A DNA stretch of 64,000 nt from Candidatus Micrarchaeia archaeon (GTDB lineage: Archaea > Micrarchaeota > Micrarchaeia > CABMEP01). Of this stretch, positions 21,001-24,000 are shown piece after piece. The position numbers are program-made. The DNA is taken from NCBI GenBank assembly GCA_038886535.1, contig JAVZXS010000001.1, forward strand, positions 1 through 64,000, in the 5' to 3' direction. Positions within the stretch are counted from its first letter, which is position 1. The number at the start of each line of letters is the position of its first letter.

Positions 21001-24000
21001 GATCTTCCATTATATTATTAGGGTCAAATCCGCCAACAATGTCAAATATTTCTCTTCTGAAAGCACTGAACGGACCTGGTGTTACATAAACTCCATTAAT
21101 CATAGCAAATAATCTTCTATTAAATATTGTAAATAAATATTCTAATCTTTGGAGCTTCTCAAGGAAAGTCATATTTTCTCTTTCCTTCACTTTTACAGCT
21201 GAGGTAACAGCTGCTACATCATCTTTAAAGTAAGAAATCATTTTTCTTAGACTATCTTTTTCAATGTATGAATCAGCGTCTAAAGTCACTATAATCTCTC
21301 CTTTAGCTTTTTCTATTCCTTTATTCAAAGAATCTGCTTTTCCACTATTTTTCTTATTTATCAATTTAACTCTTTTATCTTTAATCGTCTTTACAACTTC
21401 AGCAGTTCTATCAGTAGATCCATCATTTACGACAATAATCTCAATTTTGTCTTTTGGATAGTCTGATTCCAAAACAGATTTTATAGTATCTAATATAGTT
21501 TCTTCTTCATTATATGCAGGAATGATAAAGCTCACAGTAGGTTCATATTTAGTTCTTTTTGCACGCTTTCTAACTTTTTGTCTATTTTTCAAATATATTA
21601 ATAGCATTGTTGTAGTAAAAAAAAGAACTAAGAACATCATAATATATTCTATTACTCTATTAAATTGAAGGTTCATTTTAATCCTCTTATATTCTTTTTA
21701 CATCCATAAATTCTCTCAAAGCACTAGTTGCGTATGCTCCTTTTGTTAATTTAAACTTTAATTCGTATTCATCTTTATCTTTCTTAATATTTAAATCCTT
21801 TACATTAACAAGCAATGGACGCCAAGAACCTTTTAGGCTAATATCAGGGAGATCACGAAGTTTAAAATCACCAATCTCTATACCTTCTTCCCATAGTATA
21901 TCTTTTACTATATTATTTGGTTTACTATCATATCCAACTATTTGAGCGCAAACAACGTCATTTCCAGGAGTATTTACATCTATAAATCCATATTTATTAA
22001 ACCCACAAGTTTTATCATTTGGCATAGGTTCAAGCAAATAGTTTTTTATTCTATAACTTAATTCTAAATTAAATAAGTATGATTGATATGATTCAAGTAT
22101 TAATTTTAAAATAGAATGAGGAATGATTTTTAAAGCACGCATAAAATCCTTAGGATCTTTCTTATCTTTAAGAAATCTAACAATTTTTTTCTCATATAAA
22201 CCAAAATTATTTAAATTATCAATATCATCTATATTTTCATTTTCAGGTATTTGAAGTAGATTTTTAATTGCAGCTTCATAATTCTTTAACAACAAGTACC
22301 TTGCAACTTTAACATTCGTAAATCTAATTCCAAATCTCTGCGGTCCAAAATAATTAGGTATTTTATCTTTATTATCTTTCATTATTTCATCAATATTATC
22401 AATATTTTCAACATCTTTAATTCTTACAGCAAAACAATTTCCAGTTAATTCACCTGTCTTAATCTTATATTCTGTATTCCATGATTTCACTATTTCTATA
22501 TTTTTTACATCCTTAACTGCATTAAGGAGTTTTTCAGGTGTAATATCTTTACCTTTCCAGCAAGAAACTAATTGATATGTTATAGCATTTTTATCCTTTT
22601 GTCCAGCAACACTAAATCTATCTATTTCTACCTGAAGTCGTTCTGATATAATTTTTAGTGCTTCATAAGTAGTATAATTTTTCTTTTTTAATACAAATGT
22701 AATATATTCTGTTTCTTTCTCTTCTTTGAGATTCAGCTCTTTTACATTTTTCCCATCAAAAATTTCTTCAACTATAAATCCTTCGGGTTCTTCAATTCTT
22801 TTTCCACCACAACCTTTCTTTTTAGAGAGGTGTGATAAAGAGTTAAAATCCATTAGATCCCCAATTAAATTTCTTCTAAAACTATTAAAACATTTCAAAT
22901 AGAAAGATTACTTGAAGAAAGGGTTGATGTATTTATATTCTTAATTTTAATTTTTAGTGGAAGTATGGGAAGCACGGCTAAAAGAAAAAATATTTATATT
23001 AATTAGATTAATCTAGTAAGATTTATAAATCTTTTAGATATTATACTAATAGAGGGTACATCGAATTTTGTACATCTGCCTCAAATTGGTCGCCTCGCCA
23101 GTGCGAATGCACTGGCCTCTTTCTTTTCACAATAGGTGAAATTCAATGGATCCAATTATAATAGATGGCTCGATAGGTGAAGGAGGAGGTCAGATATTAA
23201 GAGTCGCATTGGCTCTTTCTTGTATTACTGGGATTCCATTTAATATAAAAAATATAAGGGTAAAAAGACCAAAACCAGGCTTGCAACCTCAACATCTCAC
23301 TTCTGTAAATTCACTTTCATTGATTACAAAGGCAGAAGTACATGGAAACACGATAGGTTCTACAGAACTGTTTTTCAAACCTAATAAAATAATAGGAGGG
23401 TATTATGAATTCGATATAGGAACAGCTGGGTCTATTTCACTTCTTATGCAATCAATCCTTCCAGTAATGTTATATGCAGATAGACCTTCTAAAATAACTT
23501 TCAAAGGTGGAACTCATGTTTCACATTCTCCTTCAATTGATTATTTCGAAAATATATTTTTACCTCTTATCAGAAAAATGAATGTTAACGCAGAAATACT
23601 TGTAGAAGAGTTTGGATGGTATCCAAAAGGAGGAGGAAAAGTAATTCTCTTTGTAAAACCATCTAATATTGATTCAATATCATTGACTGAAAAAATAAAT
23701 CTAAAATCAATAAATGGAATTATATCTCAATCAAACCTTCCTGAAGATATTATGGAGAGAGAAGAAAAAAGTATAAGAGAGATCTTTCCAGGTATTATTC
23801 TAAATAAAAGAAATAAAACATCATCTTCAGCAGGTAATTCCATAACTCTTTGGGCAGAATATGAAAATACAATATTAGGATATGATGTTTTAGGTGAAAA
23901 AGGTTTAAAAGCTGAAAAACTAGCTTTAAATTGTGCAAAAAACCTAAACAAATTAATAAAGTCAAAAGGATGTGTGGATGATTGGATGGGGGATCAACTT

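Follow-up and report, generated by a model that had tools for sequence, protein, structure and literature searches.

The space between truD and rtcA in the genome of a Candidatus Micrarchaeia archaeon raises a simple question: what does the small, non-coding RNA that is encoded there do? The window analysed is a stretch of 64,000 nucleotides (contig JAVZXS010000001.1, here C1 of genome G000), and the initial annotation described the RNA as a gene of unknown function for which no target had been found. That description is superseded, as a co-evolving mRNA target has been found. The conserved core of the RNA, together with its flanks, is complementary to the mRNA of one unlinked, single-copy gene in the region of the stop codon, and comparison of sequences indicates that the two have co-evolved throughout the phylum. 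Pairing with this mRNA is very probably the function of the small RNA (probability about 0.9). What is new here is thus the predicted target of the RNA, and the closest known class is that of a trans-encoded antisense sRNA directed at an mRNA 3′ end. The features of the locus are collected in Table 1.

Table 1. Features of the small RNA locus (window coordinates)
Feature	Position	Strand	Basis
truD, divergent neighbour, outside the system	21687..22898	−	
Predicted promoter: purine-rich BRE-like stretch and TATA box	23015..23029	+	sequence; TATA-like box counts
TATA-like box TTTATAAA	23022-23029	+	sequence
Small RNA gene, ~76 nt	23052..23127	+	both ends predicted
5′ box, consensus C-K-N-N-U-U-Y-U	23062..23069	+	family-weighted base frequencies, 92 copies
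Antisense arm	23070..23098	+	complementarity to G000:C1:210873-210897
Conserved core (seed), 13-mer	23084..23096	+	exact-pattern counts; position-wise pairing, compensatory changes
3′ hairpin, 8 bp	23097..23116	+	covariation; 5′ arm often target-complementary
3′ box C-U-N-N-U-U-Y-U and pyrimidine tail, U-rich end	23117..23127	+	base frequencies, 92 copies
rtcA, downstream neighbour	23146..24159	+	

The small RNA gene is real and, as a check of the window sequence showed, it lies where it had been placed, between the divergent truD and the downstream rtcA. Its promoter is predicted from the sequence: with a lenient pattern, a TATA-like box is found at 90 of 92 copies compared to 32 of 92 control windows, in agreement with the earlier claim. 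The 3′ hairpin holds up, with 97.4% of cells paired and two-sided changes at five of the eight pairs (34 sequences), and the window copy folds better than 199 of 200 shuffles (z = −3.34). The U-rich 3′ end is the probable terminator region. The 8-nt box C-K-N-N-U-U-Y-U is conserved at two places, close to the 5′ end and downstream of the hairpin; the 5′ box is possibly a protein site, although its apparent conservation is inflated because it was picked by a scoring rule. The segment between the 5′ box and the core varies and can vanish (G033). The 5′ hairpin, which had been described as variable, is dispensable, being absent from G033. At the locus of Ca. Micrarchaeum A_DKE, the assembled contigs of four RNA runs leave the small RNA uncovered in three, while in the fourth everything is evenly covered.

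The RNA was found in 145 of the 151 genomes of the phylum, nearly always once, so that the proposed distribution, one copy in most members of the phylum, is borne out; for 46 of these the evidence is an exact match, uninspected, at a position other than that of the target gene, and one is the unpublished genome G029. The exact core 13-mer is present in 116 of the 151 genomes and a reversed control pattern in 6. Inspection of 70 exact-match loci gave 62 true copies and 5 chance matches; of the other three, one is the opposite strand of a true copy and two are antisense strands of the target site. Two covariance models recovered the RNA in 36 of 42 re-searched genomes, two of these having remodelled copies. 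Exact and covariance searches revealed no copy in G019, G041, G059, G077, G089 and G104, genomes that are 91–94% complete. Second exact core matches occur in G058, G062, G074 and G112 (uninspected).

Restriction of the RNA to the phylum was also upheld, as far as it was tested. A GTDB-wide pattern scan returned at least 120 loci and, among the 80 listed, the 29 scoring about 50–72 bits are archaeal records, nearly all named Micrarchaeota, with all of the other listed loci below 25 bits. In a second phylum of small genomes, the covariance model produced one weak match in 101 genomes, and this is located within an ORF. The window copy has no Rfam 15 match at the gathering score, nor any at E < 0.27, and eight loci of the second type described below have none at the gathering score. 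Viral sequences yielded two matches, neither with the hairpin. A literature search of incomplete coverage returned no description of this RNA, which supplements could list, and the available part of the A_DKE co-culture paper (PMC8975820) contains no mention of sRNA, small RNA or non-coding. A_DKE is without a genetic system, according to the part available of another paper (PMC8623467).

Three types of the small RNA can be distinguished: a main type in which the core is free, a second type in which the core is mostly masked in cis, and a form in family f12 whose 5′ half is rebuilt. The core had been described as single-stranded, and this does not always hold, as 37 of 46 distinct second-type copies pair it with a 3′ complement in the same molecule. 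The complement varies while the core stays constant, and a two-sided change is seen in G046; therefore, the core is masked and not merely part of a structure. Second-type RNAs occur in families f10, f11, f15, f16, f17 and f19 and on metagenome contigs, and have a conserved 25-nt 5′ arm before the core. The metagenome copies were retrieved with a pattern derived from this arm, making its conservation among them circular.

The gene neighbourhood of the RNA changes with lineage and includes rtcA and DUF92, radA, a coiled-coil gene, or tRNA-Lys with aTrm56. The rtcA gene lies downstream in eight families, whereas it was not found in families f3 and f4 (0 of 45 and 0 of 25; 70 genomes), which mostly keep the RNA. 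As neighbours and orientation both vary and rtcA was not found in these two families, the RNA is not an rtcA leader but stands alone and acts in trans, as had been argued. A cis leader of rtcA, such as a riboswitch or a T-box-like element, was rejected in the same way, there being no fixed same-strand position upstream of functionally related genes. The copies in f3 and f4 (L087-L104) share a motif, TTCCAT ... ATTCCRCTA, located 60–100 nt upstream of the RNA and upstream of its TATA box, between the RNA gene and a divergent DUF92 gene; here radA is downstream. In f2, f5, f7, f14 and f18 (L001, L037, L044, L046, L049), the divergent neighbour is a coiled-coil gene of ~200 codons, for which no Pfam or NCBIfam match was obtained.

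The target was first seen by eye, when a GC-rich island in G000 turned out to be the end of an ORF of 171 codons (G000:C1:210377-210892) that encodes a coiled-coil plus winged-helix protein. This gene is present in 147 of the 151 genomes, once in all but one of them. In G000, it is separated from the RNA gene by 188 kb on C1, and elsewhere the two are mostly on different contigs. The antisense arm and its site would form a duplex of 12 bp, a 3-nt bulge and 8 bp, in which the last 20 bases through the stop codon are paired; the duplex can be extended across the stop codon, and a second site follows the first. The second core matches in G081 and G033, as well as a model match in G019, are the opposite strand of the end of the target gene. 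When the 2,579 seed-bearing windows of G000 are ranked, the first two places for non-self duplexes both fall to the target transcript (−40.8 and −36.8), ahead of one at −35.4. The leader of the target gene is long in G000 and G093 and holds further short core complements (G000:C1:210301-210376, L403).

The target gene was fetched from 71 genomes, comprising the 30 best protein matches, 40 chosen for coverage of families and RNA variants, and G019. Pairing was evaluated in the 66 genomes that have both the gene and an RNA copy, in a segment fixed by a protein anchor; these genomes are related and not independent. Over the 66 pairs, the cognate duplex averages −34.8 kcal/mol compared to −24.0 for a coding control from the same gene and −21.8 for shuffles. 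It is better than all 20 shuffles in 55 of 66 and better than the coding control in 57 of 66. Once self-structure is taken into account, net binding is −15.9 versus −10.2 (57 of 66), and the median longest helix is 13 versus 9 bp. The pairing is also lineage-specific, as none of 100,000 permutations was as good (19 families, with row and column effects removed). Individual pairs can be extensive: in G084, 33 of 35 nt are paired, and three further cases read by eye, including A_DKE, have helices of 16, 12 and 16 bp. In many lineages, the 5′ arm of the RNA hairpin is complementary to the target too, and binding would therefore open the hairpin.

Further support for pairing comes from five positions with two-sided compensatory changes, three in the main type and two in the second. 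Of 46 main-type pairs, with two that carry a core deletion left out, 39 fit one ungapped register. Here, the first position is G-C in 38 and A-U in one (G084), the second is C-G in 36 and U-A in three (G076, G095, G140), and the third is U-A in 31 and C-G in five (f1, f6, f20). The site is coding in f3, and the compensatory change there alters an amino acid. Second-type RNAs pair through the 5′ arm instead, with up to 21 bp in G056, and show matched changes in G113/G114 and G146/G148. In f12, the rebuilt RNAs fit rebuilt target sites.

These data bear on the idea that the shared sequence is a DNA-level motif, or the relic of an old inverted duplication, with no pairing between RNAs. It draws on the fact that the RNA is known here from sequence alone and on the weakness of one signal: G-U exceeds A-C mismatches by only 22 to 11 (53 of 62 pairs, nine with fewer than nine Watson-Crick pairs having been dropped), a bias that weakly favours RNA over DNA recognition. 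A motif or relic is nevertheless very improbable, as separate families show matched changes repeatedly, the segment that pairs is the core in some lineages and the 5′ arm in others, bulges are tolerated, and one of the two loci has a promoter, a covarying hairpin and a U-rich end.

The pairing is not uniform. G060, G063, G091 and G137 have a weak target site or none, and in several members of f9 and f13 the site is partial. In 9 of 66 cases, pairing of the coding control equals or exceeds that of the cognate site, for example at −42 to −44 in G037, G082 and G129, and strongly so in several f9 genomes. In G037, G129, G082 and G078 (L425, L431, L432, L416), a segment inside the target ORF outpairs the 3′ site; a conserved coding site for the RNA was not supported when tested, and pairing of the 5′ box or the tail at such a site was rejected (p = 0.45 and 0.27, with the best sites scattered). 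In f3 and f4, the target site lies within the ORF, and so coding constraint may help to preserve it. In three incomplete genomes, one partner was found: G019 keeps the target site while an RNA copy was not found, and in G046 and G155 the RNA is present while the target gene was not found.

Targets other than this mRNA were also considered. A U3-like role, or that of a modification guide on rRNA, is suggested by the 6–7 core bases that match the 5′ ends of 16S and 5S rRNA, but it is barely conceivable: sites in 16S and 23S are no better than those of shuffled cores (p = 0.59 and 0.41; 0.5–1.0 for the 5′ arm), and the RNA shows no counterpart to the rRNA changes of f3 and f4. This was seen specifically for helix 1 of 16S and for its central pseudoknot. 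Helix 71 of 23S failed as a target or a model, its variants not matching, and pairing with the 5S 5′ end reaches a maximum of 7 bp and is lost in f3. By inspection, C/D boxes, a kink-turn or a terminal ACA are not among the conserved columns of alignments A1-A3. The RNA does not replace 5S, RNase P or SRP RNA, as all three are present in G000, RNase P just below cut-off; 5S was found in 30 of 32 genomes. The core is similar to the 16S anti-Shine-Dalgarno and pairs with the starts of 24% of 557 ORFs, compared to 28% for the true anti-Shine-Dalgarno, and general pairing with Shine-Dalgarno sites was set aside as borderline (p = 0.07–0.08 versus shuffled cores). A stem between the purine linker and the tail was rejected as well (p = 0.71).

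The target protein is, by its predicted structure, of the winged-helix, DNA-binding type. The model (pLDDT 89.5) shows a pair of long helices and, at the C terminus, a winged helix (helices 103–144, strands 149–160), and its closest structural matches are AspA and ArsR-, MarR- and MecI-type proteins, one of them at E < 0.001. Pfam gives no match at E 0.001 for the G000 protein; weak winged-helix matches were obtained for other members of the family. The family comprises 220 representatives at E 1e-10, and the atlas look-alikes scoring 0.94 or higher are archaeal, with Microcaldota the commonest taxon; 61 genomes of the second phylum gave two weak, partial matches. In 61 of 71 genomes, the promoter region of the target gene contains tandem palindromic boxes. 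In G000, there is one such site genome-wide, at this gene, and the boxes are found at 0 of 98 RNA gene loci. The simplest inference is that the protein represses itself, with the boxes as a putative operator.

Taken together, a model can be proposed in which a trans-encoded sRNA acts on one mRNA, with a repressive sign, and sets a threshold on an autorepressed regulator; as a whole, this is moderately probable. The duplex would start at the free core in the main type, or at the free 5′ arm in the second type, where the core is masked, and would then invade the hairpin of the RNA itself through strand exchange. The two pyrimidine boxes are possible recruitment sites for Lsm, a gene for which is present in G000. 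The protein would bind the tandem boxes on its own promoter and shut off its own expression. In the least certain step, which is argued by analogy, the duplex would lower the stability or output of the mRNA, so that the RNA sets the threshold.

The repressive sign is a guess from precedent. In Sulfolobus solfataricus, sRNA257(1) represses Sso1183 through its 3′ UTR, with inverse regulation shown by a reporter, according to the available part of a 2014 review (PMC4152357). The opposite sign, whereby the RNA guards the 3′ end of the mRNA against decay or changes termination and so raises the level of the regulator, fits the position of the site at the transcript 3′ end, beside structured elements, and sequence cannot give the sign. 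It is decidedly unlikely given that the archaeal 3′ UTR case tested, as described in that part of the review, is one of inverse regulation (PMC4152357).

Alternatively, the roles could be reversed, and the mRNA 3′ region or a fragment of it would be the effector, acting on many ribosome-binding sites through a C-rich, anti-Shine-Dalgarno-like element, with the sRNA as its antidote or sponge. This element is present in 61 of 71 target 3′ regions versus 8 of 71 coding controls, as counted with a pattern that was written after the sequences had been seen, and is often in a hairpin loop. It is kept where the RNA has no arm for pairing with it (f1, f2, f5, f14, f20); where a purine arm is present in the RNA, it pairs lineage-specifically with the element (p = 0.014). 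Folding of the mRNA back onto the start of the same gene lacks specificity (p = 0.13), and Shine-Dalgarno sites are used in G000. Against this, a processed 3′ fragment is hypothetical, and the element lies inside the ORF in f3 and f4. Such a reversal is rather unlikely. In its fullest form, a two-RNA switch would define the phylum, the transcript of a self-repressing gene ending in an anti-Shine-Dalgarno mimic that damps translation broadly, with the sRNA as antidote; this is an improbable proposal which, if true, would give host-dependent archaea a switch for growth or dormancy that works at the level of RNA.

Repression of one mRNA by the sRNA, the preferred reading, can be compared with several known systems. 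Y RNAs with Ro60/Rsr occur near rtc genes, and second-type copies resemble them in their end-to-end stem, pyrimidine loop, U tail and linkage to rtcA. They differ in that the masked strand here is the target-binding strand and that TROVE protein was found in 0 of 151 genomes (control: 2 of 14), and a Y RNA, for which there was also no Rfam match, was rejected. In type I toxin-antitoxin systems and 3′ UTR-derived sRNAs with sponges, a dedicated RNA is likewise directed at an mRNA 3′ end, and C-rich loops can bind Shine-Dalgarno sites. Unlike in type I systems, the predicted target here encodes no small toxic peptide but a winged-helix protein, its gene is chromosomal and present in one copy, and the two genes are unlinked.

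The archaeal parallels are closer, as far as the available parts of their sources go. Like the RNA described here, sRNA257(1) is complementary to the 3′ region of one mRNA, Sso1183, but with ~60 nt of complementarity, in one species and under phosphate control (PMC4152357), compared by description with 12–33 bp, a winged-helix target and a phylum-wide distribution. In Pyrobaculum, asR3 is a 65-nt RNA at the stop codon or 3′ UTR of tpi, where it binds beside a conserved mRNA structure and may compete with it; it is an antisense transcript conserved in one genus (PMC4152357), whereas the RNA gene here is far from its target. Methanosarcina mazei sRNA162 is, like the present RNA, trans-encoded, and its unstructured linker controls a transcription factor mRNA, MM2441, by masking the 5′ ribosome-binding site (PMC4152357; PMC3510493); the site here is at the 3′ end. 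Conservation is poor for most archaeal sRNAs, many not being shared even within a genus, as stated in that part of the 2014 review (PMC4152357). In the present case, the apparent co-evolution of an sRNA with a single mRNA site, seen over 19 families, points to a very old gene-control circuit; as the genomes of the phylum are near 1 Mb, this circuit would have survived heavy genome reduction. An orphan RNA and a core protein of the phylum thereby gain a joint, testable role, for which the natural compensatory variants are ready-made controls, and the pair is intact in the co-cultured A_DKE. There, on NZ_CP060530.1, the RNA gene spans about 63,087-63,166 and the target ORF about 353,700-354,250, both on the minus strand.

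Other RNAs of these genomes gave several side observations. In G000, a tRNA-Ala(UGC)-like gene with insertions, seen by eye and missed by Rfam and ARAGORN, lies at window positions 179–355 between the 16S end and 23S. The 23S gene (window 437–3625) exceeds the model in length by ~200 nt and has apparent insertions at around 2790–2900, 3050–3150 and 3170–3215, and its flanks form a stem of ~20 bp without an evident bulge-helix-bulge. A full 16S is located at G000:C23:1127-2654 (L034); its 5′ end equals that of G001 and its 3′ flank differs from the 16S end at window 1–65, and therefore contig C23 is probably mis-binned. A CRISPR-like array follows this 16S. In f3 and f4 (L105-L109, L300-L303), helix 2 of the 16S central pseudoknot has a compensatory change and the anti-Shine-Dalgarno is shortened. 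The RNase P RNA (G000:C1:216716-217004, L032) seems, by eye, to be without P16/P17 and the L15 loop and presumably resembles type M. Finally, start regions on contigs C1-C5 of G000 are ~17-fold enriched in GUGAU and GGUGA, a short Shine-Dalgarno.
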